Positions 6,969-22,818 are shown, counted from the stretch's first letter. The stretch is 64,000 nt of DNA from Candidatus Hydrogenedentota bacterium (GCA_963668025.2 CAXXTH010000018.1:224001-288000), one strand, 5' to 3'. The notes: generated by a model from the sequence alone, not told the origin. Numbers and translations are program-made.

Positions 6969-8450
6969 TTAATATTTAGGGGTGCTGGGGTCCACTTGGC
7001 CGGACCAGCCCAAAATGCCGTCTTTAAGATTTACGAGACGGCCGCCATATCCCGACGCGCGCAAATCATTAATCGCCTTAGCGCTGCGTATGCCTACTTT
7101 GCAAAAAATGACCGCAACACGGGCGGGGTCGATTTCCGCGGCCCGGTTTACGATTTGCCCTAGCGGAATGAGCTTTTCATAAGGCAAATTTGCAATCGCA
7201 TATTCATGTGGTTCACGTACGTCGATCAGTTGGAAGTCGCGCTGTTCATCGAACCATTGCTTCAATTCGGCTGCCGAGATCTCATCAGGTGTTCCATTAG
7301 CTGTTTCGCCCACGGCTGGCGCGGGCTGGCGGAGTCCGCAGAATTCCTCATAATCGATCAGTTCATGAAGAACCGGCTTTTCGCCGCAGATAGGGCACTT
7401 AGGATTCTTATGCAGCTTCATTTCGCGGAAACGCATCTTCCACGCATCAAACAACAACAGCCGGTTAATAAGCGGTTCACCGCCGCCCAAAATGAGCTTG
7501 ATTGTCTCATTAGCCTGTATCGAGCCAATGATGCCCGGCAAGACGCCAAGCACGCCTCCTTCCGCGCATGAGGGAACCAGCCCTGGGGGCGGTGGTTCAG
7601 TGAATAGGCACCGATAGCAAGCGCCCACTTTTGCCCAGAAGACACTTGCCTGGCCCTCGAATCGAAAAATCGAGCCGTATACATTGGGTTTACCGAGCAG
7701 CACGCAGGCGTCATTGACCAAATACCGCGTCGGGAAATTATCCGTGCCATCCACAATAATGTCGTAATCACGAATGATATCCAGCGCGTTCTGGCTCGTT
7801 AGACGGGTATCATATGCATCCACTTGCACGTGCCGGTTGATGTCGTAGATGCGATCGGCGGCTGAAGCAATTTTAGGGCGCCCGATATCTCTTGTGCCGT
7901 GGATCACTTGGCGCTGTAGATTGGATTCATCCACCACATCAAAATCTACGATGCCCAGATGGCCAATACCCGCCGCCGCTAGGTATAATCCCACGGGCGC
8001 GCCGAGGCCGCCCGTGCCGATCATAAGCACTCGTGCATTTTTCAGTTTACGCTGCCCTTCGACACCGACTTCTGGAAGGATTAGGTGGCGGCTATAACGT
8101 AGGATCTCCTGGTTAGAGAGTTCCGGCAATTTCATATGACTTGACGCTTCCGCGATTTCCGGGGCTTCTTCGGCAACGCCTCCAGCAATGGACGGCACCA
8201 CCATGATCGCAGCCCCATCAGCTACTGGCGTCTCCAATCCTGACTGATACCGGATGTCCTCATCGTTCACATAGATATTGACGAAACTGCGTAATTCCCC
8301 TTTATCATTGAACAAGTGTTTATTCAGTTCGGTATGCTGCGCTACGAGCTGGCCAAGCGCTTCGCCGACGTTTTTTGCATGCACGGCTATCTCGGGTTGA
8401 TTGCCAGTAAAACGGCGCAACGCCGTGGGAATCTGAATTAAAACGGGCAT
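6969..8450 (-). CDS. Fusion of MoaD/CysO-like ubiquitin-like sulfur carrier, MoeB/E1 adenylyltransferase and rhodanese
   Basis: 8450-8178 Ubl (IPTALR..FVNIYVNDEDIR..PSIAGG); RYSRH, GTGGLG, SNLQRQ, CYRC, PSCAEGG, CPIC; rhodanese DVREPHE/FCKVGIRS. Confidence 0.9.
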   Translation of the reverse strand: MPVLIQIPTALRRFTGNQPEIAVHAKNVGEALGQLVAQHTELNKHLFNDKGELRSFVNIYVNDEDIRYQSGLETPVADGAAIMVVPSIAGGVAEEAPEIAEASSHMKLPELSNQEILRYSRHLILPEVGVEGQRKLKNARVLMIGTGGLGAPVGLYLAAAGIGHLGIVDFDVVDESNLQRQVIHGTRDIGRPKIASAADRIYDINRHVQVDAYDTRLTSQNALDIIRDYDIIVDGTDNFPTRYLVNDACVLLGKPNVYGSIFRFEGQASVFWAKVGACYRCLFTEPPPPGLVPSCAEGGVLGVLPGIIGSIQANETIKLILGGGEPLINRLLLFDAWKMRFREMKLHKNPKCPICGEKPVLHELIDYEEFCGLRQPAPAVGETANGTPDEISAAELKQWFDEQRDFQLIDVREPHEYAIANLPYEKLIPLGQIVNRAAEIDPARVAVIFCKVGIRSAKAINDLRASGYGGRLVNLKDGILGWSGQVDPSTPKY

Positions 8451-8454
8451 ATGC

Positions 8455-8883
8455 TCATGCTCCTTTCCGTATTGGCTCTGGGTTGAAACGAGAACGATCT
8501 GCTTCCATTTCCCAAGAAAGCAGGCTGCCTGCTTGGCCTTGGCGTATAGCGACAATGACGTACGAATACGTTGGCCAGGCATGGTCCAAATCAAACTGGG
8601 ACGGCTCCGCCGGATGATCGGGATGCGAGTGATAAAACCCGACCACATCAAGCGCTTTCGAGCGGGCAAGTTTCTCTCCCGCCAGCAACTCATTCGGCGC
8701 TATTAAGAATCGGTTGTGCCGGGAGCCTGTATCGCGCGCATTGGCGATGGGATGTATTTCCACAACGCTTTTTCCATGTTGCGAATCAATACGGCCGATA
8801 AGCAGCCCACAACACTCATGGGGATACTCCGCTTCGCCATGCCGCCGGATTGCATCGAGATGCTCGGTTTGAATCAAAATCAT
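8455..8883 (-). CDS. JAB/MPN+ (M67, Mec-like) metallopeptidase
   Basis: YPHECCGLL and YHSHPDHPAEPSQFD JAMM motif. Confidence 0.92.
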   Translation of the reverse strand: MILIQTEHLDAIRRHGEAEYPHECCGLLIGRIDSQHGKSVVEIHPIANARDTGSRHNRFLIAPNELLAGEKLARSKALDVVGFYHSHPDHPAEPSQFDLDHAWPTYSYVIVAIRQGQAGSLLSWEMEADRSRFNPEPIRKGA

Positions 8884-8885
8884 GC

Positions 8886-9851
8886 TCAACCCTCCTCCCA
8901 AAAGAAATCGCCCACATAACGGGAACCGCTGTCGCAGAGTATGGTGGCCACGACAGATCCAGGCGGCAGCGTGCGGGCCAGCCGGATGGCGGCAAATACA
9001 TTGGCTCCTGAACTGACGCCGACAAACAGCCCTTCACGTCGCGCCAAGCGCCGGGCGGTTTCCTGGGCATCTTCGGTGGAGACCTCCACCTGCTCATCTC
9101 CCAACGAAGCATCATAAATGCCAGGGACAATCGTTGTTTCTAGATGCTTCATCCCCTCCAAACCATGCAGAGGGGAGTCTGGCTGCATGCGAATGGCGCG
9201 CAAGCGGGGATTAAGCTCTTTTAGCCTGCGGACCGTACCGGTGAACGTGCCGGACGTGCCCATACCCGCAACAAAATGCGTCACCCGCCCTTCCGTCTGT
9301 TCCCATATTTCCGGGGCCGTCGTCTCATAATGCGCCCGCCAATTTGCTGGATTGTTATATTGATCTGGATAGAAGTATTTTCCAGGTTCTTTAACGGCTA
9401 ATTCGGCGGCCCGAACCTGTGCTCCGTCAGAACTCTGCAACGGATCGGTTTCAATGATCTGGGCTCCATATGCACGCATAATACGCTTGCGCTCTATACT
9501 GGCATTCTTCGGAAGGCATAATACGACCTGGTAGCCCAGAGTCGCACCGAGCATCGCATAAGCAATACCGGTATTGCCGCTGGTGGCGTCCAGAATAGTC
9601 ATGCCTGGCCGGAGCCGGCCCTCTCGTATTCCTTCTTGGATCATGGACCAGGCAGGCCGGTCTTTCACAGACCCGCCGGGATTCAAGTGCTCGGCTTTCG
9701 CATACACTGCCACCTCTTCAGGCAAATCATCCGCCAGGCGCGTGAGCCGCAATAACGGCGTGCGTCCAATGAGTTCGTATAATCTCCGCCCAATCCGAAC
9801 TGGACCAACAGAGGCGGCGAACTGCGTAGGAAGCGGTGCGGCGCAAACCAT
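8886..9851 (-). CDS. cysM: PLP-dependent cysteine synthase (CysM-like)
   Basis: KAEHLNPGGSVKDR, ATSGNTG, DQYNNPAN, GMGTSGT, GVSSGA. Confidence 0.88.
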   Translation of the reverse strand: MVCAAPLPTQFAASVGPVRIGRRLYELIGRTPLLRLTRLADDLPEEVAVYAKAEHLNPGGSVKDRPAWSMIQEGIREGRLRPGMTILDATSGNTGIAYAMLGATLGYQVVLCLPKNASIERKRIMRAYGAQIIETDPLQSSDGAQVRAAELAVKEPGKYFYPDQYNNPANWRAHYETTAPEIWEQTEGRVTHFVAGMGTSGTFTGTVRRLKELNPRLRAIRMQPDSPLHGLEGMKHLETTIVPGIYDASLGDEQVEVSTEDAQETARRLARREGLFVGVSSGANVFAAIRLARTLPPGSVVATILCDSGSRYVGDFFWEEG

Positions 9852-10048: not shown

Positions 10049-10996
10049 ATGAATCCGAATCCGAAAGATGAAATCGCCAATCTGGTGAATACTATCGTCG
10101 CTAGCTACCACGCCGAACCAAAAACACGCCACATTGGCGCGGGCAAACTTCCCAATCACGACGACATTGTCACGGTCATCCATTTGCTGCGGCAGATTTT
10201 GTTTCCGGGCTACTTTGGCAAGCAAGATTTAGAAATAGGCACCGTAGAATACCATGTAGGCGATCTGCTGATTGATATCCATGACCGCCTGCTCGCGCAA
10301 GTGCGCAGTGCGCTGCTTCATGAAGCCGCGCGTTTGGGAGAATCGCCCAGCGACAGTGAAGCCAGGGCGGAGCGTATCGTGAATGATTTTCTTCAGACGA
10401 TTCCGCAATTGCGCGCGGTGCTGGCGACGGATGTCCAAGCGGCTTTCGACGGCGATCCAGCAGCCGGGGACACCGATGAGATCATATTCTCCTATCCTGG
10501 CCTCTTTGCCATTACGGTATACCGGCTTGCCCACGAACTCTACCTGCGTGGAGTGCCGTTAATTCCCCGTATCATGGCCGAGCATGCGCACAGCGCCACG
10601 GGCATTGATATCCATCCAGGCGCTGATATCGATGAATACTTTTTCATTGACCATGGCACAGGCGTTGTCATCGGCGAGACAACCAAGATCGGCAAGCATG
10701 TCAAAATTTATCAAGGAGTCACACTGGGCGCGCTATCCACACGCGGTGGCCAGAAGTTGCGCGGCGTGAAGCGGCATCCTGCGCTCGAAGATGAAGTGAC
10801 CGTCTATTCGGGCGCGTCCATTCTTGGCGGGGAAACTGTCATACGTAAAGGCGTGGTCATTAGCAGCAACGTTTTCGTGACCCAATCCGTTCCGCCCAAT
10901 ACTCGAGTGACCGTGAAAAATCCTGAATTGCAATACCGGGATCAAAAGCCCAAAACATTCAAGCAAGATATGCCGCCTCTCGAATGGCAGATCTAG
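10049..10996 (+). CDS. cysE: Serine O-acetyltransferase (EpsC/CysE type)
   Basis: GDPAA, SYPG, YRLAHEL, TGIDIHPGA, FFIDHGTGVVIGET, YQGVTLG, KRHP. Confidence 0.93.
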   Translation: MNPNPKDEIANLVNTIVASYHAEPKTRHIGAGKLPNHDDIVTVIHLLRQILFPGYFGKQDLEIGTVEYHVGDLLIDIHDRLLAQVRSALLHEAARLGESPSDSEARAERIVNDFLQTIPQLRAVLATDVQAAFDGDPAAGDTDEIIFSYPGLFAITVYRLAHELYLRGVPLIPRIMAEHAHSATGIDIHPGADIDEYFFIDHGTGVVIGETTKIGKHVKIYQGVTLGALSTRGGQKLRGVKRHPALEDEVTVYSGASILGGETVIRKGVVISSNVFVTQSVPPNTRVTVKNPELQYRDQKPKTFKQDMPPLEWQI

Positions 10997-11036
10997 AGCA
11001 GCTCAAGCCCGTGCGCACATGCCGAAGATGAGGCTT

Positions 11037-11175
11037 AGCGCAGCGTAGCCGCAACCAAAGATCCGGATTTTGCACCACGAAGAAACGAAGAACACGAATA
11101 TTTTCCGCAGATGACACAGATGTCACAGATTAAAATCTAGAATTGATATCGTTTTACTTCGTGCTCTTCGTGGTG
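11037..11175. repeat. Extragenic palindromic/short-period repeat element, copy 1
   Basis: AGCGCAGCGTAGCCGCAACCAA; inverted CACCACGAAG../..CTTCGTGGTG arms; internal (CA)CAGAT repeats with 9-bp period. Confidence 0.5.
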
Positions 11176-11352
11176 GAAGTCTGGTCTCTAACGAGTTGAT
11201 GTATATTGATTTACGCAGAAAATCCATGCAAGGAAACTAGATTTCGACAAATAGTAGTTCGAATGAATCATCTCGATATGGCTGCAAGGGCCTTGTCGTT
11301 TTGCCATTCGGATATAGGATGTACGGAAATATCCCTGCCGTCCGTTTTCTAA

Positions 11353-11655
11353 GGGTGTAGCTCTGTTATTACCGCTCCTGGAAGAATATATCATGCGTAC
11401 GTATTGAAGAAATAACGTAAAACCGCCTACCTGTCATCCCCGCGAACGCGGGGATCCAGGGAATTTGCACTGGATTCCCGCTTTCGCGGGAATGACAGCA
11501 AGATAGATTACGGGGTTTTATACAACAAATGCTATTAGGTGGTGAGGCAAATCCACCATGCATTTTGGTTCATCCGCGCGCCCAAGAACGGCTCCAAATA
11601 AGTTGCGGCTATCCCTCGACAAGGCGAACGGAGCGGTAATAACAGAGCTGCACCC
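11353..11655. mobile_element. 303-bp MITE, copy 1, intact
   Basis: 26-bp TIRs GGGTGTAGCTCTGTTATTACCGCTCC / GGAGCGGTAATAACAGAGCTGCACCC; 8-bp TSD TTTTCTAA (11345-11352, 11656-11663); second copy at 48804-49106. Confidence 0.9.
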
Positions 11656-12033
11656 TTTTCTAATAACCTTTGAGCCTTAGCGTCTTTTCGTGTAATAGAA
11701 ATCTAGATTAATTTTACTTATCGCATGAGCCAAAATCATTATGTCCCGCATACTCGTGGCGCGGAAATCCTGAAACACAACGAACGAGTCGTAACTATAT
11801 GCTGAGGAAAAACCTGCTCAAGATGGCCAAAAAGATACCTGATTCTATTCCGCCTCCAATATCATAGAGCCTCCTCCTCCTAATCAGCCGCCTTCTGTTT
11901 CAAAAATAGCCGCCTATTTCCATTTCATTCAAACAAGTAAAAAACCGTAAATATATGTACTTAAAAGACTTACTAGAACTTAGCTTTAAGAAGACAAGGA
12001 TACAGACCGAAAAGAATAAGTATTTCGATTTAT

Positions 12034-12066
12034 ATACTTGACTTTACTCGCTAGGTATGATATTGT
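12034..12066 (+). promoter_or_regulatory. Sigma70 promoter of the nitrogenase-like operon overlapped by an IscR/Rrf2 type-1-like operator
   Basis: TTGACT(12038)-N17-TATTGT(12061) with extended TG; 25-mer ATACTTGACTTTACTCGCTAGGTAT (12034-12058) resembles ATASYYGACTRWWWYAGTCRRSTAT. Confidence 0.55.
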
Positions 12067-12110
12067 TTAGTAATCACAAGTAAATAAATCATATTTATCG
12101 GGTTTACGGT

Positions 12111-12992
12111 ATGGCGATCGATCAACAACACACATTCGCACATCTGGTCCGGCGCCATCCGTGCTACAACCCGGAGGCCCATGGGCGGCTTGGACGTATT
12201 CATCTGCCTGTGAGCTCTTCGTGCAACATCCGGTGCCGTTTTTGCCGGCGCTCCTTCAATGCGGAGGAGCATAGGCCGGGGGTAAGCCGGAAAGTGCTGG
12301 CGCCGGAGCAGGCGATGAAGGTGCTCGAACGGGCGTTGCGGCTTTGCCCGGCGATTTCAGTGGTGCGCGTGGCGGGGCCGGGCGAATCGCTGGCGACGGA
12401 GCATGCGCTTATCACGCTTGCTATGGCGCATGAACGCCACCCAGATTTGATTGGGTGCTTAAGTACGAACGGCCTGCGGCTCGCGGAGCATGTGGATGCG
12501 ATAGTGGCGGCAGGCGTATGCACGGTGTCGGTGACCGTCAATGCCGTCGAGCCGGAGATCTTGCAGCATATATGCGGCGGGGTGGAGGACCAAGGGCGTC
12601 TGAAGACGGGCGTAGAAGGAGCGGAAACGCTGATATCGGCGCAGCTCGAGGGAATTCGTTTGGCGGCAGGCCGGGGCCTTGTGGTGAAAACGAATATGGT
12701 GTTGATTCCAGAGGTGAATGATGGCCATGTCGGAGCGGTGGCGCGGACGATGGCGGAAGCGGGCGCGAGCCTGATTAACGTGCTTCCACTCATCCCTGAA
12801 CATGAAATGGCTTATATGCAAGCGCCGGATTGCCATGCAGTGAATGCGGCGCGGGAAGTAGCGGAGCAGTATTTGCCCGTATTCCGGCATTGCCGACAGT
12901 GCAGGGCGGATGCATGCGGGATTCCAGGAGCAGGCGTGGATTTCGCCGAGCAGTTATACGAGCAGCGAGTGGAAACCTTTTCACATGGGTGA
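12111..12992 (+). CDS. NifB/MarB-like radical SAM cluster-assembly protein, no fused NifX domain
   Basis: HPCY, CNIRCRFC, EHRPG, AGPGE, STNG, TVTVN-like SVTVN, HCRQCRADA. Confidence 0.88.
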   Translation: MAIDQQHTFAHLVRRHPCYNPEAHGRLGRIHLPVSSSCNIRCRFCRRSFNAEEHRPGVSRKVLAPEQAMKVLERALRLCPAISVVRVAGPGESLATEHALITLAMAHERHPDLIGCLSTNGLRLAEHVDAIVAAGVCTVSVTVNAVEPEILQHICGGVEDQGRLKTGVEGAETLISAQLEGIRLAAGRGLVVKTNMVLIPEVNDGHVGAVARTMAEAGASLINVLPLIPEHEMAYMQAPDCHAVNAAREVAEQYLPVFRHCRQCRADACGIPGAGVDFAEQLYEQRVETFSHG

Positions 12993-13001
12993 ATCGAGGA
13001 G

Positions 13002-14477
13002 ATGGTGATTATGCCGCTAGTGAAGCCGGTGGAAACCAGGGAATCGCGTTTACAGTCAACGGTGGCGTATGGGGGCGGATGCCACGGGCTGGCCAATGGC
13101 GGCAAATGCCGTTGCCTGAAGCGCTTGGATAGGCGCTTTTCTCAAGCAACCGTATGCCAGGAATGGTACAGCTTGTTCACGCTGCTGACGGTGCGCAACG
13201 CCGCCGTGGTGGTACATGGGCCGGTGGGATGCGTGAGCAGCGGCGCCACCATGAACATTTTCAGCAGGCTGGGCCAGGAGGCCCGCGGGCATGAAAAAAT
13301 CCGTAGCGCGCGCTGGTTTTCGACCAATTTGGCGGAAATCGACACCATTCATGGCGGCGAGGCGAAACTGCGCGCCACAGTGCATGCCATCGAGCAGCGC
13401 TATCACCCTGAAGCTATTTTCATCTTTACGACGTGCGTGTCTGGAATCATTGGTGATCCGATGGCGGATATCGTGAATCAGCTTCAGGAAGAAGTGCAGG
13501 CGCGGCTGGTCCTCAGCCAATGCGAAGGATTTCGCACATCGGTCTGGGCGACGGGCTTCGATGCGGCGTTTCACGGGATCATTCATTACCTCCTGGAAGA
13601 GCGCCCGGAAAAGGAGCCGGATTTGGTGAATATCATCACACCGCTGACCGTGGGGCGGCTGGATGAATTGGAATTGGAACGATTGCTTCATCAATTGGGC
13701 CTGCGTCCCAATTTCGTACCGTGCTACGCAGGCATTGAAGATTTAAAACGTACGGTAAGCGCGGCGGCGACGGCTGCGGCTTGCTTAACCTATGGCGATT
13801 ATTTCGCACGCGCACTTTCGGAGCGGTATGGCGTGCCCCATATTCGGGAAGTCATGCCATTGGGCATTGCGAGCACGGATCGGTGGCTTCTGGAACTGGC
13901 GCCGCTTTTAGGAAAAGAAGCCGAGGCGGAAGCCTTGATTGCACGGGAGCATGAGCGTATCGCTCCGCGTCTTGAAGAATTGAGGAAACGCTTGGCGGGT
14001 AAGCGGGTGTTTGTCAGCGCGGGACAGGCCCGCGCCACCACGATGGCGGCCATGTCGAAAGAATTGGGCTTCGAGATCGTGGGGGCCACGATTTACCACT
14101 ACGACGAAGTAATTGAACAGAGCATGCAGCGCCTGGCGCAAACGTGCGGCGATTTCGCAGTGAATGTGGCGAATGTGCAGCCGTTCGAGCAGGCGAATTT
14201 GCTCCAGCGGCTGAAACCCGACTTATACATGGCGGATGAGATGACGACGGTATGGGCGGCCCGCCAAGGCATCGCCACAATGATGATCTACGACTATGGC
14301 ATGAATTATTTGGGGTACAACGGCCTTCTGGCCACGGGCGGGCGGATGGCGCAAGCAATGGATAATTCGAGCTTCAATGTGAAGCTGGCCCGGTACAATC
14401 CGCTGCCATACCGCTCATCCTGGTATAACGCGGACCCCTTTAAATACATCACAACGCCAGGAGGCCAGAACATATGA
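13002..14477 (+). CDS. Nitrogenase-like component 1 alpha subunit (group IV NflD, MarD-related)
   Basis: RESRL..FSQ..C52, HGPVGC77, STNL, GGEAKL, TTC145, CEGF..WATGFDA, C261, QPFEQANLL, LPY. Confidence 0.85.
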   Translation: MVIMPLVKPVETRESRLQSTVAYGGGCHGLANGGKCRCLKRLDRRFSQATVCQEWYSLFTLLTVRNAAVVVHGPVGCVSSGATMNIFSRLGQEARGHEKIRSARWFSTNLAEIDTIHGGEAKLRATVHAIEQRYHPEAIFIFTTCVSGIIGDPMADIVNQLQEEVQARLVLSQCEGFRTSVWATGFDAAFHGIIHYLLEERPEKEPDLVNIITPLTVGRLDELELERLLHQLGLRPNFVPCYAGIEDLKRTVSAAATAAACLTYGDYFARALSERYGVPHIREVMPLGIASTDRWLLELAPLLGKEAEAEALIAREHERIAPRLEELRKRLAGKRVFVSAGQARATTMAAMSKELGFEIVGATIYHYDEVIEQSMQRLAQTCGDFAVNVANVQPFEQANLLQRLKPDLYMADEMTTVWAARQGIATMMIYDYGMNYLGYNGLLATGGRMAQAMDNSSFNVKLARYNPLPYRSSWYNADPFKYITTPGGQNI

Positions 14478-15784
14478 GCACAGAACAGCATTTGGTCGAG
14501 AATCCCCGGTATTCGTGCGCGCTCGGCGGCGCACTGGCGACGGCCACGGCCATGCACCGGGTGGTGCCCATCCTGCATGGCGGCCCCGGATGCGGGCTCC
14601 AAGTGTATAACGGACAGAATTATGTAGCAGGCTACCAAGGACCGGCGTATATCGGCGGCTCGGCTGTGCCCAGCACGAACACAGTGGAGCGCGAAGTGGT
14701 GTTCGGCGGCGAACAAAAGCTCCATGCGCTGCTCCGCTCCGCCATCGAGCTTATAGATGGCGATTTGTACCTCGTGCTGACCGGTTGCACGGCGGAGATC
14801 ATCGGCGATGATGTAGCGGCCGTGGTGGCGGAATACCGGCGGGAAGGGCGCAACGTGGCTTATGCGGAAACCGGCGGATTCAAAGGTAATACGCTGCTCG
14901 GTTATGAACTGGTGTGGAAGGGGCTGCTGCGCCAAGTCGTGGAGCGGCGTCCTCGCGATCCCAAGCTGGTGAATCTATTTGGCGTCATACCCGCGCAAGA
15001 TATTTTCTGGGAGGGCGGCCTCCAGGAGATCGCCCGGCTGCTCGAAGCGCTCGGCTTGCACGTACATACGTTTTATACCAACCGGCAAGGCGTCGAGGAA
15101 ATAAAGAATTCGTCCGCCGCCGCGCTCAATATCGTGCTAAATCCTTGGCTGGGCGCGGATCTTGCCGCGCAGTATGAAAAAGCGTACAGAGTTCCATCGC
15201 TTCGGTTTGACGGCATGCCGGTGGGCCCCACGGAAACGAGCGCCTTCTTGCGCACCGTGGGGGAAGCGCTTGGCCTGTCCACGGAGGCAGTGAACGCCGT
15301 AATCGAACGTGAAACGCAGGCGGTGTATGACCAATTCGCCAAGGCGTCGCTGGCGGTGACGGGGTTTGGATTCCAGCACCGGGTGGCCATTATTGGAGAA
15401 AGCGGGCCCGCGCTCAATCTGGCGCGCTTTCTTTCCAATGATTTCGGGCAGATTTTAGCCGCCGTGGCGATCACGGACGATCCGCCGGAGCCGGTGCGGG
15501 AGCGGCTGGCCGCGGCACTCGGCTCTTTGGAATTCGGCCCTATTCCAGAAGTGATCTTCACCTCGGAGCAATCCACGATCTGGGAACACATCCGCCAAAC
15601 GGAGCCGACGTACATTATCGGCAGTTCACTCGATAAGGATCTTGCCCAGGAACTGGGGGTGCTGCATCTGAGCGCCACATTCCCAGTCACGGACCGGGTC
15701 GTGCTTAACCGTTCTTACACAGGGTATCGCGGCTGCGTGACCCTGGTGGAAGACTTCATTGCGCAAGCAATCACGGCGTTATGA
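14474..15784 (+). CDS. Nitrogenase-like component 1 beta subunit (NflK, MarK-related)
   Basis: PRYSC15ALGG, HGGPGC40, PSTNTVEREVVFGGE, LTGC105..IIGDD, ETGGFKG, FPVTDR, GYRG; ATGA overlap with NflD. Confidence 0.85.
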   Translation: MSTEQHLVENPRYSCALGGALATATAMHRVVPILHGGPGCGLQVYNGQNYVAGYQGPAYIGGSAVPSTNTVEREVVFGGEQKLHALLRSAIELIDGDLYLVLTGCTAEIIGDDVAAVVAEYRREGRNVAYAETGGFKGNTLLGYELVWKGLLRQVVERRPRDPKLVNLFGVIPAQDIFWEGGLQEIARLLEALGLHVHTFYTNRQGVEEIKNSSAAALNIVLNPWLGADLAAQYEKAYRVPSLRFDGMPVGPTETSAFLRTVGEALGLSTEAVNAVIERETQAVYDQFAKASLAVTGFGFQHRVAIIGESGPALNLARFLSNDFGQILAAVAITDDPPEPVRERLAAALGSLEFGPIPEVIFTSEQSTIWEHIRQTEPTYIIGSSLDKDLAQELGVLHLSATFPVTDRVVLNRSYTGYRGCVTLVEDFIAQAITAL

Positions 15785-15932
15785 AGGAGTGGCAAAACTG
15801 AACCTACAAGGAGACGAGTCATGTATGAACGATGTCGAATGCAAACGCTGGGCTTAATGGCGAATCGAACGAAGGAATCTATACGGACGCTGCTCATTCG
15901 ATGGCGCGGACCGGGAACAAGGAGAAAAGAAT

Positions 15933-17378
15933 ATGGGCGTCGCAGTAGCACCTGAAACCATTCGAGCAGAGTCATATGGCCTCAAGGACCAAATCCTCTC
16001 GCCACTCGAGACCTTGGCGCAGTCCATTGCAAACATTGCGCCAACGGCCACGCCGACGGTAGTCATTCCATTGGTGTTTGCCTTATCCGGCAATGGAACC
16101 TGGCTTGCCTACCTCATCGCCACCGTCGCCATGCTGTTTGTGGCGTCGAACATCAACCATTTCGCCCGGCGTTCCGCATCGCCTGGCTCGTTGTACACCT
16201 ATATCGCCACGGGGCTAGGCCCAAGCTGGGGCGTTCTGGCGGGTTGGTCGCTGGTGATCGCGTACATCGGATGCGCATCCGCCGTCACCAGCGGATTCGC
16301 CAATTACGCCAATGTGTTTCTCCTAGCTACGGTGGGATTTGAGCTTCCGCCAGTCCTTTTGATCGCGCTCAGCGTGGCGCTTTCGTGGCTGGTGGCGTAT
16401 AAGGACATCCAGCTTTCCGCACGGCTCATGCTGGTGCTCGAGCTGTCCTCCGTGAGCTTGATCCTGTTGCTGGTGGCCATCACCCTCGTGCGGTTTGGCT
16501 TCCGCCTGGATCTTTCGCAAATCACGCTGGAAGGCGTGACTCCCACGAGCCTTCGCCTGGGCTTGGTGCTCGCCATGTTCAGCTTCGTGGGATTCGAGAG
16601 CGCGACAGCATTGGGCACGGAAGCGCGCAATCCACTGCGCAATATCCCCCGGGCCGTTGTCCTCAGTGCGGTAATCGTCGGAAGCTTGTTTGTGATTGCG
16701 ACGTATGCCGAGGTCATTGGCTTCACGGGTTCTAGCGAGACGCTAGGTGCGAGTTCCGCGCCGCTGCATGTGCTCGCGGAACGAGGAGGAGCGCCTTTCT
16801 TGGGCCTTCTCGTGGACCTAGGCGCGGTGGTGAGCCTGTTCGCATGCACGCTCGCCAGCATCAATGCCGGTGCGCGCGTTCTCTTCCTCATGGGCCGCCA
16901 CGGCATTTTCCATGCTTCCGTGGGCGGCGCGCATGATACGAATGAAACGCCTCACATCGCCGTGACCATTTCCACCGTGCTGGCGTTCCTTCCCGCGGCG
17001 TTCCTCGCCCTGCGCGGCGTCGCCATGTTCGACATTTATGGATGGGTGGGCACTGTTTGCACATTGGGATTCCTGGTGGCGTACGTCATCGTTTCGGTGG
17101 CTGCTCCAGTCTATTTGCGCCGCCGAGGCGAACTACGCCTGCACCATGTGGCGGTGGCTGCGCTGGCCGTGGGCCTTTTGGTCCTGGCTATCGCCGGGAA
17201 CCTCTACCCCGTGCCTCCAGCTCCCCTAAATTGGCTCCCCTATCTGTATTTCGGCCTGCTGCTGTCTGGCGCCGTATGGCTCATGGTGCTGCGCTACTTC
17301 GCACCCAATGTGATCATCCGTATCCAAGATGACGTGGCGGCCATCCGTGAACGGTTCAGTGATGGGGGCGGCATTTGA
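15933..17378 (+). CDS. APC-family amino acid/amine permease
   Basis: ~12 hydrophobic segments, AQSIANIAPT, PGSLYTY, FSFVGFESA, EARNPLRNIPRA. Confidence 0.9.
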   Translation: MGVAVAPETIRAESYGLKDQILSPLETLAQSIANIAPTATPTVVIPLVFALSGNGTWLAYLIATVAMLFVASNINHFARRSASPGSLYTYIATGLGPSWGVLAGWSLVIAYIGCASAVTSGFANYANVFLLATVGFELPPVLLIALSVALSWLVAYKDIQLSARLMLVLELSSVSLILLLVAITLVRFGFRLDLSQITLEGVTPTSLRLGLVLAMFSFVGFESATALGTEARNPLRNIPRAVVLSAVIVGSLFVIATYAEVIGFTGSSETLGASSAPLHVLAERGGAPFLGLLVDLGAVVSLFACTLASINAGARVLFLMGRHGIFHASVGGAHDTNETPHIAVTISTVLAFLPAAFLALRGVAMFDIYGWVGTVCTLGFLVAYVIVSVAAPVYLRRRGELRLHHVAVAALAVGLLVLAIAGNLYPVPPAPLNWLPYLYFGLLLSGAVWLMVLRYFAPNVIIRIQDDVAAIRERFSDGGGI

Positions 17379-17430
17379 ATTATCCAGCGTGTGCCGAACA
17401 GGCGGAATAAGCCCGAGGAGGATCATCAAA

Positions 17431-17625
17431 ATGGCATATGCACATAATTATGACAATAGGCCTCCAATTTATCGATGGGAACGGCTGTTTAAGCGATTTC
17501 CAAAAAACGAGGCAAAAAACGAGCCGCATATGCTGCGCTCTCTCGAAGACGCCGTGACGCTTGTTCAACAACAGTACCCACACAATACCCGCACTCTCGT
17601 GGTGAAACTGGGTTCACCCGAGTAA
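17431..17625 (+). CDS. Small hypothetical protein (64 aa)
   Basis: GAGGAGG RBS 9 nt before ATG 17431; co-oriented inside the operon. Confidence 0.45.
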   Translation: MAYAHNYDNRPPIYRWERLFKRFPKNEAKNEPHMLRSLEDAVTLVQQQYPHNTRTLVVKLGSPE

Positions 17626-17706
17626 AGCAGGCCTGGCGGGCGGGACTATTGGGGGGTTGGCCCGCCAGGATTTTGGTCAGAAGAGCAAGAACGAAAGGGA
17701 AGTGCC

Positions 17707-19266
17707 ATGACGAAACGAATCTTATTTCTAACGCTGCTGGCCGGACTTTTGCCGCTGCCCGCCATAGCCGAATTGCAGAACGTCGAGATAGGCGGCAAAC
17801 TCCAAATACGTGGGAATTGGTACACCAATTATTTGGCCAGTCCGGATGGAGCCCGCCTGCGGTGGCCTGGCAATTGGCTTGCTGGGCGCGCCATAGGCTC
17901 CTCGGATGGAAGCATCTGGAGCGCCTTTTCCTGGGACAAAGACAGCAATAGCTCCCGCGATGTGAACCAGCGGACCCGGCTAAGCGCCAAGGCCGATTTT
18001 ACAGGTGAGGTGACAGGGCTCATCGAGTTCGACAGTTATGACACCTGGGGTGAGGATTTCCGCTCGAACCACATCACGGGCGCGGATTTTCGCCAAAACT
18101 CGGCGGCGGATGATGTCTCGGTATATCAAGCTTATATCGAGGCGCGCGAATTAGGCGGATTGCCCCTTACGCTCAAAGTCGGGCGGCAGGAAGTGCTGCT
18201 TGGCAGCGGATGGCTTATCGGAACGAATGACACTGGTTCTATTTTCACCGGGCTTTCGTTTGACGCGGTAGCGCTGGTATACGCTCAAGACCCTGTGCAA
18301 ATCGTTGGCTTCTGGGCAAAAGGCTATGATGGCGGCCTTGCGGAAGAAGACGGCGATGTGGACCTCTACGGCGTATACGGCACGTACACCGGGCTTGAGA
18401 ACCAGGCCTTTGATGCGTACTGGATCTTGGGCCGCGATGCGCGCAGTGTCAATGACACCAATTTTAGCTGGGTGGGGGAAACCGTTGAAGGCTTTCTTGG
18501 GCTAGATGACTATAATGTTACCAATCTGCATACGGTCGGCCTCCGCGGAAGTGGCAAGATCGGCGCGTTTGATTATGAAGCGGAAGCCGCATATCAGTTT
18601 GGAGATGCAAGCCAGGAAGGCTCCCTGTTCAAGTTGGGCTTCTATGGCGATGACGATGCTTCTTTTGATGCGCTGGGTGCGAATTTGGAGTTGGGCTACA
18701 CATTCGACACCGCGTGGTCGCCTCGCTTGTTCTTGGGCGGCGCCTATTTCAGCGGTGAAGACAACCGCTCGACATCGTTCTGGGATCAGTTTAATCCCTT
18801 CCGGGAGCCCAAGGCGAGCGTGAGTTTTGACCGCTTGTTCTCGAACTGGGGCTACAGTGAGTTTCTAGATTTCACGGAACTCTCTAACATCTATGTCTTG
18901 AGATCAGGCGTGGTGGCGAAACCCACGGAAGCGCTGACCTTAAAACTGCTCCTCAGCTACTTCAATACGGTCGAGCCCTTTGAAGCCCCTGTAACCTTCA
19001 ATCTGGGTGGTTATCAGATTCCCATTGCTCCAGGCCTGGGGTGGTGGACCAAGGAAAATCCTTCGGATTTGGGCTGGGAGGCCGAGGTTATCGCCAACTA
19101 TCAGTACACCGAAGACCTGTCTTTCGAGGTGGGCTGGGCGCACTTGTTCGTGGGCGACGGCTTAGCCTCGGGCGCGTTTAATTCCAATAATGGACTGGCT
19201 TTTACGGGCGGTTCAGGAAGCGACGACTCAGATTACCTCTATGCGGAGACCAAACTTAAATTCTAG
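17707..19266 (+). CDS. Outer-membrane beta-barrel porin (alginate-export-like family)
   Basis: Signal peptide, QRTRL, YQAYI, KVGRQE, FDA, amphipathic strands, C-terminal YAETKLKF. Confidence 0.8.
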   Translation: MTKRILFLTLLAGLLPLPAIAELQNVEIGGKLQIRGNWYTNYLASPDGARLRWPGNWLAGRAIGSSDGSIWSAFSWDKDSNSSRDVNQRTRLSAKADFTGEVTGLIEFDSYDTWGEDFRSNHITGADFRQNSAADDVSVYQAYIEARELGGLPLTLKVGRQEVLLGSGWLIGTNDTGSIFTGLSFDAVALVYAQDPVQIVGFWAKGYDGGLAEEDGDVDLYGVYGTYTGLENQAFDAYWILGRDARSVNDTNFSWVGETVEGFLGLDDYNVTNLHTVGLRGSGKIGAFDYEAEAAYQFGDASQEGSLFKLGFYGDDDASFDALGANLELGYTFDTAWSPRLFLGGAYFSGEDNRSTSFWDQFNPFREPKASVSFDRLFSNWGYSEFLDFTELSNIYVLRSGVVAKPTEALTLKLLLSYFNTVEPFEAPVTFNLGGYQIPIAPGLGWWTKENPSDLGWEAEVIANYQYTEDLSFEVGWAHLFVGDGLASGAFNSNNGLAFTGGSGSDDSDYLYAETKLKF

Positions 19267-19340
19267 ATAAGCGCGGAATGGCGGAGCGCCAGGCTTCTTA
19301 ATACGGAAAAGAATGGCGCTCCGCCCTAAGGAGAAGCGTT

Positions 19341-19679
19341 ATGGCGGTGCGGATTGCTATCACGAGCATAGACAATGTGCTGGTCGAACAGCACTTTGGC
19401 GCAGCGGTGCGTTTTCAAGTATATGAAATCGGAGCAGGTGAATACCGCTTCATAGAAGCGCGCGACACATCGCCTTCTTGTGATCGTGGCGAAACCAACG
19501 CCGCCAGGAGAATCCATCACGTGCTTGATGCGCTTTCAGACTGCACGGCCGTGCTGGCGAGCTGCATAGGCCCATGCGCCGCCCAGGAATTACAGGCGCG
19601 AGGAATGCGCTATTACATCACGTATGAATATATTGAAACAGCACTGAGAAAATTGATAACGCAAAAAGTATTCGCTTAG
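19341..19679 (+). CDS. NifB/NifX-family cluster-binding protein
   Basis: RIAITS..VEQHFGAA..F.VY, LSDCTAVL..IGP. Confidence 0.85.
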   Translation: MAVRIAITSIDNVLVEQHFGAAVRFQVYEIGAGEYRFIEARDTSPSCDRGETNAARRIHHVLDALSDCTAVLASCIGPCAAQELQARGMRYYITYEYIETALRKLITQKVFA

Positions 19680-19694
19680 CGGAAAGGGGTTGCA

Positions 19695-20570
19695 ATGTCG
19701 AAGAAGATTAAACAAGTGGCGATTTATGGCAAGGGCGGAATTGGAAAATCCACGACGACATCGAATATCAGCGCGGCGCTAGCCGTGGCGGGCTACCGGG
19801 TTATGCAGTTCGGCTGCGATCCCAAGAGTGATTCCACCAATACATTGCGCGGCGGGCATTATATCCCAACCGTTCTGGATTCTTTGCGCGAACATGAAAA
19901 TGTCCGTCCCGAGGAAGTGGTTTATCAAGGCTTCGGAGGCGTTTACTGTGTGGAAGCAGGCGGGCCAGCGCCCGGCGTGGGTTGCGCGGGGCGCGGCATC
20001 ATCACTGCAGTGGATTTGATGAAACAGCTCCATGTCTTCGAGGACCTCGATATCGATATCGTGATTTATGATGTCCTTGGAGACGTAGTATGCGGCGGAT
20101 TCGCCGTGCCCATCCGGGAAGGCATCGCCGAGCATGTATTCACGGTGTCTTCCGCGGACTTCATGGCCATCTATGCGGCGAATAACCTGTTTAAAGGCAT
20201 TCGGAAATACTCGCATGCTGGCGGCGCACTCTTGGGTGGTGTCATCGCCAACTCGATCAACAAGCCGTATGCACGGGACATTATTGATGACTTCGTATTG
20301 CAGACAAGCACAAAAGTCATCGAATATGTGCCCCGCTCCGTGACCGTGACCCAAAGCGAATTGCAAGGTAAAACAGTCATTGAAGCTGCTCCGGCGTCCG
20401 AACAAGCGCGCATTTATAGCAGTTTGGCTGAACGGCTTGTTCAGCACACCGATTCGCGCATCCCCACGCCTCTCGAAAACCAGGGGCTTCGGGAATGGGC
20501 GGAAAAATGGGCCGAAGTGCTGTTGTCCATCGAAATAGGAGAAGTGCAGGGAACCGCCGCCAGTATCTAA
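19695..20570 (+). CDS. Nitrogenase iron-protein-like ATPase, MarH-like
   Basis: YGKGGIGKSTT, GCDPKSDST, EAGGPAPGVGCAGRG, DVLGDVVCGGF; MQFGCDPK..NTLRGG and IAEHVFTVSS recall MarH rather than NifH. Confidence 0.9.
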   Translation: MSKKIKQVAIYGKGGIGKSTTTSNISAALAVAGYRVMQFGCDPKSDSTNTLRGGHYIPTVLDSLREHENVRPEEVVYQGFGGVYCVEAGGPAPGVGCAGRGIITAVDLMKQLHVFEDLDIDIVIYDVLGDVVCGGFAVPIREGIAEHVFTVSSADFMAIYAANNLFKGIRKYSHAGGALLGGVIANSINKPYARDIIDDFVLQTSTKVIEYVPRSVTVTQSELQGKTVIEAAPASEQARIYSSLAERLVQHTDSRIPTPLENQGLREWAEKWAEVLLSIEIGEVQGTAASI

Positions 20571-20776
20571 TGTTTCATTCTCCTCAAAAGCGTCTTCCGT
20601 TGTCTGCCACTGTTGGGTAGAGCTTGCCCCACCGTTCAAGGTTTGAGCTTCCCCCGCATCAGCCAGCTTGAGTGCTGCAAGTTTTGCTTGTTTGCTGGCA
20701 GGCATTCATGGTATTGCATCGCGGCGAAACAAGAAGCCTTACGGTGAATAACATGAACCGCTTTGGAGAAAATACC

Positions 20777-21673
20777 ATGAAGCCTGGCTACGCCCGCATC
20801 TATACGCGGGATGATGATACATTCCATATTCTTCAGATTACGGACCTTCATACGGATCAAAGCGAAGAAGCGAACACGAAGACCTGGAACGATATTCACG
20901 CCATGTGCGCACAGTTCCAGCCGGATTTCCTGGCTGTGACGGGCGATATCTGGTGCGGCGATGCGCGCCCAACAGAAGCGCCATCATGGATGGCCCGGGA
21001 TATCGAGCGTATCGGTGCGCTGGGCATTCCATGGGGTTTCGCCTGGGGCAATCATGACTGGGGCGTTGACACTCCCGCAGCCCAGCGGCAAATCGCCGCC
21101 GCACCCAACGCCGTGGTTCCCGAAGGCGACGGCCAGGGTAATTATCGCGTGGAAATCGTTTCGCCCCAGGCCAGCGAATGCTTGTGGGATCTCTTTTTCC
21201 TCAATTCACACACAATATGCCTGCTCCCCGAGGATGTGGCCTGGCTCGCGGAAGAAGCCCAGCGGCTGCGCACGGCGCGCGGCCGCACAGTTCCAGCAAT
21301 CGTCTTTTTCCACATCCCCCTGCTACAATACGAAACCGCACGCGCCGAAGGGCGCATCCATGGCCCCGGGCCGGAAGACGTGGCTTATTGGGGAGACGAT
21401 GGGACGCGCATCGAGGGCATCCAGCGCGCGGGCAGCGTGCGCGCCTGTTTCGTGGGCCATAGCCACCGCAATGATTTTTGGTTCGAGGATGGCGGCATCG
21501 TGTTCGCGTATGGCCGCGCCACGGGCCATGGTGGGTATGGCGGCGAGGAACTGCCCAAAGGCTGCAAACTGATCAAGCTGGGCGCTGAAAGCGCGTTCCA
21601 GTTCGCCACGGTGTTTCCCAATGGCCGAAGCGAAAACCACGCCATGTTCGGCCTCATGGGGTCGGATACATGA
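20777..21673 (+). CDS. Calcineurin-like metallophosphoesterase
   Basis: TDLH, TGD, GNHD, FFHIP, GHSH; GGAG RBS before ATG 20777 (track start 20672). Confidence 0.85.
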   Translation: MKPGYARIYTRDDDTFHILQITDLHTDQSEEANTKTWNDIHAMCAQFQPDFLAVTGDIWCGDARPTEAPSWMARDIERIGALGIPWGFAWGNHDWGVDTPAAQRQIAAAPNAVVPEGDGQGNYRVEIVSPQASECLWDLFFLNSHTICLLPEDVAWLAEEAQRLRTARGRTVPAIVFFHIPLLQYETARAEGRIHGPGPEDVAYWGDDGTRIEGIQRAGSVRACFVGHSHRNDFWFEDGGIVFAYGRATGHGGYGGEELPKGCKLIKLGAESAFQFATVFPNGRSENHAMFGLMGSDT

Positions 21674-22818
21674 ATGCTCCCGCCAAACAAAAGAATACGC
21701 GCGACGTAGCGCTTATCTCCGCCGCGTTTTTCTTCGCCTTCATCGGCACGGGCGCAAGCCAGCCCTTTATCATCGACTATGTTGCGGAGGCGAAAAGCAT
21801 TCCTCGGGAGCAAGCCTCGCTCGTGCTCGCCACGGTATATTTCTCGTTTCTTTTCTTCCGTTTTTTCAGCGATTACGTCATCCGTTTCCTAGGCGTCCAT
21901 CGCGCTAAAATCATAGGCGCAGCCGCGTATGCCCTGTTTCCACTGCTGGTGCGGTATGCGCCGTCCTTGCCGTGGCTGCTGGCGGGAAGCTGCTTCTGGG
22001 GATTGGGAGCGATGTTATTGTGGAACAGCTCACTCGTCCAGGTGATGAATACCTCCGCACCGGAGCGGTATAGCGCCAGCACGGGCTATGTGCGCGGGAC
22101 CGTCGTTATCGCGAATTTCCTCGGGGCTTATCTGCTGTCCTTTATTTATGCCCGCCGGGGATATGAAATCCTTCTGTATGCGGCCGCGTTGCTGGGTGCG
22201 GCGGGCATCATATTCATGCTGTTATCGCCCCGGCGCGTCATCGAGGTGGCCAAACCCCATCCTCGCCGTTTTATCGCCCTGATGCGCGAGGGAGACCCCC
22301 TTCTCGTCGGCCTGCTATTTCTCTGCTCCGCCATGGCGTATGGCATCGTGTTGAATGGAATCAAAGGCCATATCGAAGCGGTGAACGGCAAATTCTGGCT
22401 TGAATGGACTATGCCCGCATTCTGGATTGCGGGTATTGTGGCGAATTTCGGCGGCGGGCGCTATTGCGACCGGGCAGGACGGTGGCCGGTTATGATCGCG
22501 GGCTTCACCGTGGGAGCGGCGGGCATGCTGCTCCTTGCCCTCAGCCTTCATCCCCTGGTTATCATGGCCGCCCTGGCTTGCCTGGGCTTTCAACTATCTA
22601 TCGTGCCCTTATCCGTGTTTGGCTGGATAGGCGACCGCGCGGGCCACGCGGAACGCACTGCGGTAGTCGGCTATATCTTTTGCTTCAACGACCTAGGCGT
22701 CGCATTATCCATACAGATGCGCGGCTTGTTCCCCTCCGTGCCCGCCGCCGCTTGGGCTTTTTTCGCGATCTACCTATGCTGCGCCATAGCGGCCCTGGTA
22801 GTGCATATGCGCAAATAA
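21670..22818 (+). CDS. MFS transporter
   Basis: ~12 TM segments, GGRYCDRAGR motif; ATGA overlap with upstream gene. Confidence 0.8.
   Translation: MNAPAKQKNTRDVALISAAFFFAFIGTGASQPFIIDYVAEAKSIPREQASLVLATVYFSFLFFRFFSDYVIRFLGVHRAKIIGAAAYALFPLLVRYAPSLPWLLAGSCFWGLGAMLLWNSSLVQVMNTSAPERYSASTGYVRGTVVIANFLGAYLLSFIYARRGYEILLYAAALLGAAGIIFMLLSPRRVIEVAKPHPRRFIALMREGDPLLVGLLFLCSAMAYGIVLNGIKGHIEAVNGKFWLEWTMPAFWIAGIVANFGGGRYCDRAGRWPVMIAGFTVGAAGMLLLALSLHPLVIMAALACLGFQLSIVPLSVFGWIGDRAGHAERTAVVGYIFCFNDLGVALSIQMRGLFPSVPAAAWAFFAIYLCCAIAALVVHMRK

Follow-up and report, generated by a model that had tools for sequence, protein, structure and literature searches.

Why should two transport genes stand inside a run of nitrogenase-like reductase genes? 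The question is raised by a 64,000-nucleotide (nt) stretch of DNA from a Candidatus Hydrogenedentota bacterium (GCA_963668025.2 CAXXTH010000018.1:224001-288000), here called the window, in which open reading frame (ORF) calls and Pfam/NCBIfam profiles revealed a co-oriented run spanning 12.1-22.8 kb. Between nflDK, which encode the reductase proper, and the genes for NifX-like and NifH-like proteins lie the genes of an APC-superfamily permease and an AlgE-like porin. The initial annotation had already described this splitting of the reductase genes by permease and porin within one co-oriented run, and the ORFs and their Pfam matches confirm it. The answer that we favour is that the run is a horizontally acquired sulfur-salvage island, in which the NflDK reductase is coupled to its own uptake route for a sulfur-bearing primary amine; we give this reading about an even chance of being correct. 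The genes of the run are listed below, with coordinates counted within the window and the plus strand defined as the orientation of the run; MarD is the D subunit of the methylthio-alkane reductase (Mar) of Rhodospirillum rubrum.

12111..12992, +: nifB-like radical SAM maturase without a NifX domain (Radical_SAM 57.9 bits; TIGR01290 nifB 254.5 bits, covering model positions 5-278 of 441)
13002..14477, +: nflD, catalytic alpha-like subunit, with Cys261 kept and Asp412 at the position of MarD His429 (PF00148 278 bits)
14474..15784, +: nflK, beta-like subunit (PF00148 237 bits)
15933..17378, +: APC-superfamily permease of 481 amino acids (aa), the candidate substrate importer (Pfam AA_permease 86.3 and AA_permease_2 76.7 bits, both above cut-off)
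17632..17675, +: G+C-rich hairpin with a short U-run, a possible terminator or attenuator (fold -33.7 kcal/mol, z -2.98)
17707..19266, +: AlgE-like outer-membrane beta-barrel of 519 aa (Pfam Alginate_exp 106.4 bits, cut-off 25.2)
19341..19679, +: NifX-like cofactor carrier (Nitro_FeMo-Co 70 bits; TIGR02663 55 bits, cut-off 112)
19695..20570, +: NifH-like ATP-dependent reductase (Fer4_NifH 332 bits; TIGR01287 404 bits, cut-off 394.35)

Intergenic distances are 9 bp (nifB/nflD), -4 (nflD/nflK), 148 (nflK/APC), 328 (APC/porin), 74 (porin/nifX) and 15 (nifX/nifH). NflD and NflK are the sole PF00148 proteins of the host genome, and therefore the nifB-, nifX- and nifH-like genes here serve NflDK and not a diazotroph nif cluster. 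Because the hairpin, a 10-bp G+C-rich stem followed by AUUUUGG, precedes the porin start by about 30 nt, the run from 12111 to 20570 may comprise two transcripts, and a single operon is only putative.

The association of permease and reductase recurs outside the window. A scan of species-representative genomes with NflD retrieved four loci (L001-L004) at 61-67% identity, whose source metagenome-assembled genomes (MAGs) are labelled Myxococcales (L001), Solibacteraceae (L002), 'bacterium' and Lentisphaerae. Their gene orders were obtained by tblastn with the window proteins. L003 has the order secretin-like gene, nifX, nifH, nifB, nflD, nflK, APC (66% identity), cysK and a cystathionine gamma-synthase-like gene, its NifH-like protein being 75% identical to that of the window. 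L004 shows metY, nflDK, a second nflDK, a PALP gene and, cut off by the end of the contig, the 5' part of an APC gene (70% over 117 residues), and L002 shows nifB, APC (48% and 39%, in two frames) and then three nflDK pairs. Window NflK is 54-57% identical to the partner genes of L001, L003 and L004. The contig of L001 stops 113 bp past nflK and was left out of the count of APC co-occurrence. When two metagenome loci (L064 and L069) with a window-clade NflD adjoining an APC gene are included, the permease lies within 7 kb in 6/6 informative loci of this clade (the window, L002, L003, L004, L064 and L069; NflD 61-68% identical). Co-conservation of the carrier with this NflD clade, as proposed in the initial annotation, is thus borne out at every informative locus, and no close NflD orthologue without APC appeared among them. 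The position of the permease is conserved as well: it lies between nifB and nflD in nine loci (L002, L069, L070, L072, L074, L075, L076, L077 and L084) and directly 3' of nflK in five others. Three NflD clades adjoin APC in this way, namely the window clade (window, L003, L064), an Arg-His clade (L069-L077, L084, L002) and a Gly-His clade (L038, L039, L059) whose loci are accompanied by a glutamine-synthetase-like gene.

Two of these loci deserve a remark of their own. L064, a metagenome contig of 21.4 kb, carries four nflDK pairs of three clades together with one APC gene and one nifX-nifH-nifB set within 17 kb, which suggests that several paralogous reductases share a single set of maturase and reductase. 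In L002 of the Solibacteraceae MAG a gene for an SrpI-type 2A encapsulin shell lies beside a long cysteine desulfurase and a rhodanese (17022-19776, minus strand), just 3' of the three nflDK pairs.

How did the host come by these genes? NflD was found in 0/40 genomes of the host's family and order, and neither was APC (0/40 at E 1e-20). Because both are missing from the same 40 relatives, NflD and APC arrived together, and the nfl genes plus the permease make up a rare, patchy, co-transferred unit; the operon was acquired horizontally by the host. In the phylum of the Solibacteraceae MAG, 0/400 further genomes contained NflD (1/401, the one being the centre genome itself). A plasmid collection searched with NflD gave five records, all below 60% identity and none alphaproteobacterial.

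What the permease might carry can be approached through its relatives. From a metagenome scan with an APC alignment the best 80 of 134 confirmed relatives were kept (79 loci, 40-67% identity); ORFs within 7 kb were clustered across the loci, and representatives of the recurrent neighbours were annotated. Tree and neighbour counts were based on 82 APC rows of at least 400 aa (75 distinct sequences) and on neighbours within 5 kb. Nfl or nif genes accompanied 17 rows (15 distinct), a class-III omega-aminotransferase module 16 (12 distinct), a copper primary-amine oxidase (NF008559 912 bits, cut-off 651) 21 (20 distinct) and a glutamine-synthetase-like gene only 8 (8 distinct), while 20 rows (20 distinct) had none of these markers. 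The best matches of the glutamine-synthetase-like protein were type III glutamine synthetase and gamma-glutamylputrescine synthetase, both under cut-off. The aminotransferase module also holds MetY (TIGR01326 615 bits, cut-off 495) and, always between omega-aminotransferase and MetY, a 192-aa protein (L010:6387-6965 and 10 homologues) that has no Pfam or NCBIfam match. It possesses an invariant CxxC and a predicted fold of the AhpD/carboxymuconolactone-decarboxylase type (pLDDT 87.5; Foldseek TM 0.70, E 7e-6).

Omega-transaminases, copper amine oxidases and gamma-glutamyl ligases are enzymes acting on primary amines. Because the neighbours (omega-transaminase, copper amine oxidase and gamma-glutamyl-ligase-like) all share this property, the APC family is best read as a family of amine carriers, whose members in sulfur-gene contexts would carry a sulfur-bearing amine. 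Judged by these contexts, an alpha-amino acid or a sulfonium compound is a less likely substrate than a primary amine. In the initial annotation the APC gene had been taken to imply a non-volatile amino-acid- or amine-like substrate, a charged organosulfur compound such as methionine, an S-alkyl-cysteine, a cysteamine derivative or a sulfonium compound. Its core stands, since with 6/6 linkage and co-acquisition a non-volatile, nitrogen-bearing organosulfur compound is the best reading, but the range narrows to primary amines: the amine-enzyme contexts suit compounds of the cysteamine or methylthio-alkylamine type and disfavour the other three.

A phylogenetic tree of the permeases indicates how often the association was formed. 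The nfl label needs at least seven changes on well-supported (starred) branches, and 0/500 shuffles were as low; on this tree, linkage of APC to nitrogenase-like genes arose at least seven times among the 82 relatives. The window APC falls into a subclade of 20 rows (SH-aLRT 88), comprising 15 rows with the aminotransferase module, four nfl rows and one short contig, and has as its sister groups the L003 pair and an amine-oxidase group of 17 rows. The loci of the closest APCs are rich in genes for the interconversion of methionine and cysteine (MetX, MetY, CBS-type PALP, cystathionine gamma-synthase/lyase and CysK). The permease itself satisfies what defines the APC superfamily, with Pfam scores above gathering threshold and about 12 hydrophobic segments in a crude hydropathy scan. 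It fails the cut-offs of every named amino-acid carrier equivalog (BcaP, YjeH, GabP, CAT and LAT), and a search of the ESM Atlas with APC returned generic 'APC family permease' clusters only.

Is the reductase a methylthio-alkane reductase, as the initial annotation presupposed? With respect to gene content it resembles one: nifB-like, nifH-like and two PF00148 genes are present, plus a separate nifX-like gene. Among solved structures NflD matches MarD best (9fmg_A/9d9u_A, 302 bits), NifD and NifE reaching at most 120. HMMER with NflD over 1.84 billion representatives gave only 161 at E <=1e-30, with one full-length representative (61%) of the window type; a search of 90% clusters gave 17 clusters at 61-71%, followed by a tier of 29 clusters at 45-50%. 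One member of the window clade is P0167, a protein from a Fibrobacteraceae MAG (62% identical). In a FastTree phylogeny of 164 rows the window fell into a clade of 22 rows (support 99), on the opposite side from the 55-row Arg-His clade. MarD had no row in this tree and was placed indirectly by the bit scores of eight queries against 9fmg_A: P0007 of the Arg-His clade scored 456, the window 302 and representatives of other clades 209-260, which places MarD in the Arg-His clade, apart from that of the window. The distinctness of the window clade is judged by our own tree and bit scores.

The cofactor ligands tell a similar story. The numbering of 9fmg_A (Cys270, Arg428, His429) agrees with that of R. 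rubrum MarD in PMC12552129. In a 77-row alignment Cys52, Cys77, Cys145 and Cys261 are kept in 97-100% of the NflD rows and Cys174 is also conserved, so the P-cluster and cofactor cysteines of the D subunit are present; Cys261 aligns with the cofactor cysteine, Cys270, of MarD. The His429 column holds Asp in 16/16 window-clade rows (Asp412 in the window) and His in 49/61 other rows, and 25 rows of the MarD-like clade carry Arg-His. Pairwise alignment to MarD leaves a gap at Arg428 and places Asp412 at His429, and only two other positions share with Asp412 the property of being fixed throughout the window clade and rare elsewhere. His429 ligates the [Fe8S9C] cofactor, and Arg428-His429 has been proposed as a possible hallmark of Mar (PMC12552129); this His is described as conserved in Mar homologues and in nearly all Group IV sequences (bioRxiv 10.64898/2026.08.20.746119; PMC13753814). 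To judge from the alignment, the window clade is an exception to the conserved cofactor His, and Asp412 possibly takes its place as a putative cluster ligand. Precedents exist in the aspartate ligation of an Fe-S cluster by the NB protein of protochlorophyllide reductase and in NifE, where the histidine is absent. Lying outside the MarD clade and devoid of Arg428-His429, NflD appears not to be a canonical methylthio-alkane reductase and would represent a distinct, uncharacterised clade; in this respect the premise of a Mar-type enzyme had to be given up.

The initial annotation had also counted the porin as a pointer to the substrate. The protein begins with a hydrophobic, signal-like segment and its last residue is Phe; there was no sequence match in the PDB. 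Its family has six copies in the host genome and 2-10 copies, up to 61% identical, in 39/40 relatives. The five further AlgE-like paralogues of the host (50-57% identical) are located at C17:1153086-1154636, C3:111033-112562, C18:289579-291147, C10:308926-310455 and C10:894646-896181, and one of the five lies just past the end of the window. By tblastn no counterpart was found in L001-L004, and the only distant relative among the metagenome loci is in L009, at the end of the aminotransferase module (24% identity by tblastn, Alginate_exp 39.9 bits). The porin therefore represents the host lineage's usual type, locally recruited, and does not belong to the conserved system. What recurs at this slot is merely some outer-membrane channel. 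The window (AlgE-like) and L017 (secretin-like, PF00263) agree in having APC, an outer-membrane protein, nifX and nifH in this order; L016 ends within a secretin-like gene, and in L003 such a gene lies 5' of nifX. A barrel of 1,140 aa (OMP_b-brl_4) flanks the nfl genes in L069, L072, L074, L075, L077 and L084. The presence of three unrelated outer-membrane families beside one inner-membrane carrier is suggestive of a solute whose passage requires assistance at both membranes. The secretin-family proteins (about 500 aa; L003:4425-5933, L017:2947-4461 and L016:2594-3667) stand alone beside nifX/nifH or APC, without type II secretion or pilus genes, and a nitrogenase-like sulfur locus is an unusual place for a secretin.

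Whatever is taken up, the surroundings of the run and the host genome point to sulfur. On its 5' side the run is preceded by a CysE-like gene in the same orientation and by divergent genes for a CysM-like protein and a ThiS-ThiF-rhodanese fusion. Two genes of doubtful membership follow on its 3' side:

6969..8693, -: ThiS-ThiF-rhodanese fusion, a MoeZ/MoeB-like sulfur-carrier activating enzyme of 574 aa (Pfam ThiF 278.5, ThiS 41.1 and Rhodanese 33.3 bits)
8886..9851, -: CysM-like cysteine synthase (Pfam PALP 257 bits; TIGR01138 cysM 366 bits, cut-off 394)
10049..10996, +: CysE-like serine O-acetyltransferase (TIGR01172 157 bits, under the cut-off of 210.65)
10997..12110, no strand: non-coding 1.1-kb gap 5' of the nifB-like gene, with a MITE-like element (no ORF of at least 80 aa)
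20672..21673, +: calcineurin-like phosphoesterase, membership of the system uncertain (Metallophos 45.9 bits)
21670..22818, +: MFS transporter overlapping the phosphoesterase gene by 4 bp, membership of the system uncertain (MFS_1 88.4 bits)

The fusion protein scores 542 bits against NF005646 (cut-off 633). Its proximity to the CysM-like gene presumably recalls protein-thiocarboxylate-dependent cysteine synthesis. A ThiF with 50% identity to the window copy adjoins APC in L008/L009, and PALP genes about 40% identical to the CysM-like gene flank APC in L003 and L004. Nearly every nfl-linked locus holds genes of cysteine or methionine metabolism (CysK/CysM-type PALP, MetY or cystathionine gamma-synthase). 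No counterpart of the phosphoesterase was found in L001-L085 at E 1e-8, nor one of the MFS transporter in related loci.

The host genome, which is 93.75% complete, yielded neither PAPS_reduct nor NIR_SIR; as controls, the two profiles matched in 14/14 and 11/14 well-known genomes, respectively. In 19/20 relatives PAPS_reduct and NIR_SIR occur side by side. The failure to find a sulfite reductase makes a sulfonate substrate unlikely: it argues against sulfonates and sulfinates and favours a product at the level of sulfide or thiol. Taurine, hypotaurine and isethionate were set aside as candidates for the same reason. MetY is encoded elsewhere in the host genome (668 bits, cut-off 495). The AhpD-like 192-aa protein was not found there, and the aminotransferase of the module has only paralogues of 28-38% identity.

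Three further elements of the window may be mentioned. The gap 5' of the nifB-like gene contains an element of MITE type of about 307 bp (11351-11657) with 28-nt inverted repeats (11351-11378 and 11630-11657) that are 96% complementary. No Rfam family, riboswitch or other RNA, reached its gathering score in this gap, and the centre of the element (11412-11521) gave only sub-cut-off matches (by E-value threshold) to unrelated hairpin families. Group II intron domains were detected at 41527-41814 on the minus strand (RF02001 122 bits and RF01998 52.7 bits, both above gathering score). A gene similar to those for SAM hydroxide adenosyltransferase/(R)-SAM hydrolase lies at 24983-25885, 2 kb 3' of the run and on the opposite strand.

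How could these parts act together? A non-volatile sulfur-bearing amine would pass the outer membrane through the recruited AlgE-like porin and be imported across the inner membrane by the APC permease. The leading candidates, which come from chemical reasoning only, are 3-(methylthio)propylamine, 2-(methylthio)ethylamine and cysteamine/cystamine; the first is proposed because a transaminase of the nfl-free sister module would convert it to methional and thence methanethiol, a substrate of MetY. NflDK, matured by the NifB-like and NifX-like proteins and receiving electrons from the NifH-like protein at the expense of ATP, would then cleave the C-S bond of the amine at an L-cluster-like cofactor, held in NflD by Cys261 and possibly Asp412. 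The freed sulfide or methanethiol might be fixed by the adjoining CysE/CysM/ThiS-ThiF and by MetY. Direction of transport, reaction and product are what we infer here, next to the observed gene content, co-transfer, linkage, contexts and ligand swap and the failure to find sulfate-reduction genes.

Several observations weigh against this proposal. We infer the identity of the substrate through guilt by association, and 20/82 APC rows lack the marker neighbours, although about half of these lie on contigs too short to judge. The closest APCs (63-67%) are mostly not beside nfl genes, and in L007, L009, L011 and L012 none occur within the roughly 9-10 kb available on either side. The Myxococcales MAG of L001, which may be incomplete, gave no APC at E 1e-30. 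On the transport side, the hairpin between APC and porin may separate transcripts, the porin belongs to a general host family, and the nearest named NCBIfam models of the permease (TIGR00909 129.7 bits, cut-off 556.8; BcaP 97.6, cut-off 690; YjeH 40.6, cut-off 284) as well as its nearest solved relatives (GkApcT, 6f34, 41 bits) are amino-acid carriers. In R. rubrum and Rhodopseudomonas palustris the Mar/Nfl clusters adjoin methionine transporters that are not thought to be substrate carriers (preprint above; PMC13474568). With regard to sulfur supply, the missing 6% of the genome could hide cysH/cysI, and one relative (G003) lacks both yet has no NflD.

Some of these points would be explained if permease and porin were a general uptake system for sulfur starvation, bringing in methionine, cyst(e)ine or another sulfur amino acid and being co-regulated with NflDK but unrelated to its substrate. 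The sub-cut-off affinities of APC to amino-acid and methionine carriers, the amino-acid transporters among its nearest solved chains, the methionine transporters and sulfur-assimilation genes at the purple-bacterial loci, the MetX, MetY, CBS-type PALP, cystathionine gamma-synthase/lyase and CysK genes around the closest APCs and the possible terminator before the porin are all consistent with such an importer. A merely co-regulated importer does not readily account for a permease whose gene separates nifB from nflD in nine loci and immediately follows nflK in five, that became linked at least seven times and that came in together with the nfl genes, not with cys genes; nor does it explain why the remaining family members are associated with enzymes of primary amines and not of alpha-amino acids. 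We therefore consider it unlikely, if a serious competitor. Alternatively NflDK could be an ordinary methylthio-alkane reductase acting on volatile dimethyl sulfide (DMS), ethyl methyl sulfide or (2-methylthio)ethanol, the permease being irrelevant or an exporter or exchanger of the product. The match to MarD, far above NifD/NifE, speaks for it, as does the gene set, which corresponds to the 'nflX plus truncated marB' form that is functional in Fibrobacter succinogenes and Ruminiclostridium hungatei (PMC13753814); a Fibrobacteraceae protein (P0167) belongs to the window clade, and in L069-L077 and L084 APC adjoins an NflD of the MarD-like Arg-His clade. The window clade, however, lies outside the clade that holds the closest MarD representative and lacks Arg428 and His429, the pair proposed as hallmark of Mar (PMC12552129). 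Outside Group IV-C, according to PMC13753814, Mar activity of physiological relevance is absent, which counts against an ordinary Mar if the window clade lies outside that group. On balance an ordinary Mar is improbable.

It might also be argued that the imported amine serves as a source of nitrogen or is processed by C-N chemistry, the sulfur genes nearby being coincidental. Amine-catabolic enzymes do accompany the APC family, the glutamine-synthetase-like gene adjoins nflDK in L038, L039 and L059, and a Group IV-A system has been implicated in nitrogen acquisition (PMC13753814). Coincidence is hard to reconcile with cysteine and methionine genes at nearly every nfl-linked locus, with CysE, CysM and ThiS-ThiF-rhodanese beside the run and with a host in which no genes for sulfate reduction were found, and a role in nitrogen supply seems very improbable. 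Salvage of sulfur from an imported primary amine by NflDK is accordingly the reading that we retain. It can be taken a step further, tentatively: the window clade may be a new functional class, in which an L-cluster-type cofactor with Asp for His would cleave aminoalkyl thioethers or thiols, and in which APC, an outer-membrane channel and the reductase would form a three-part module that has spread among anaerobes and feeds a host without sulfate assimilation. This extension is possible rather than probable.

What would this mean? For most nitrogenase-like clades of Group IV no substrate is known, and screening has so far used volatile sulfides only (PMC13753814). A recurrent and positionally conserved link to a permease whose family elsewhere serves the catabolism of amines gives a concrete class of candidate substrates that is cheap to test, and the His-to-Asp ligand change marks a clade whose cofactor chemistry may differ from that of Mar and nitrogenase. 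If the reading is correct, sulfur-bearing amines would be added to the compounds that feed anaerobic sulfur assimilation, and the sulfur supply of a lineage member without detected sulfate-reduction genes would be explained. Parts of the picture are already in print. The known substrates of Mar are volatile and neutral (PMC12552129; PMC13753814), a nitrogenase-like enzyme with a charged substrate has been described in isethionate reductase (PMC11423573; PMC13474568), and transporters have been noted beside nitrogenase-like enzymes: a sulfonate ABC system with isethionate reductase and methionine carriers near Mar and NflDK3 (preprint above; PMC13474568). Our literature search found nothing joining nitrogenase-like enzymes, an amino acid permease and sulfur. 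In PMC13753814 and the R. palustris preprint neither permease nor porin is mentioned, and in PMC13474568 no permease. Among the matches listed for methylthiopropylamine in bacteria there were only dimethylsulfoniopropionate, S-adenosylmethionine (SAM) or food chemistry, together with a passage on decarboxylated SAM in PMC13474568.

Comparison with known systems places each part of the locus. The window porin shares with the AlgE alginate-export family (PF13372) the Pfam match, the signal-like N-terminus and the C-terminal Phe, but its neighbours are nfl/nif and transport genes, no alginate genes being nearby, and it is a general, multi-copy porin type of its lineage. The permease has superfamily, fold class and about 12 segments in common with amino-acid carriers such as GkApcT (PDB 6f34/5oqt), BcaP and TIGR00909; it differs from them in its low score (41 bits to GkApcT) and in the amine enzymes that are the genomic partners of its family. 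NflDK3 of R. palustris (RPA2363-64; bioRxiv 10.64898/2026.08.20.746119), compared with the window by description only, is likewise a Mar-like D/K pair whose substrate is not known, but it keeps His429 and is 52-56% identical to Mar1, whereas the window clade has Asp. Isethionate reductase (IsrBHDK, Rhodobacter capsulatus, Group IV-F; PMC11423573, PMC13474568), which can be likened to the window by description and not by sequence, obtains sulfur from a non-volatile charged organosulfur compound with the help of a dedicated transporter, and genes of the cysE/cysK type adjoin it. It uses an ABC sulfonate transporter and yields a product at the level of sulfite, whereas the window run has an APC permease and no ABC sulfonate genes, and no NIR_SIR was found in the genome. 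With Mar (MarBHDK, R. rubrum, PDB 9fmg and 9d9u; PMC12552129, PMC13753814) the window has in common the two components, a maturase of the NifB type, a sulfur-assimilation context and cysteines of the P-cluster type; it differs in belonging to another clade, in the absence of Arg428, in the invariant Asp that replaces His429 and in the permease and outer-membrane channel within the run. Neither an APC permease nor an amine-type substrate nor the His-to-Asp clade turned up in the literature searched; as a nitrogenase-like C-S reductase for anaerobic sulfur acquisition the system would work like Mar and Isr.

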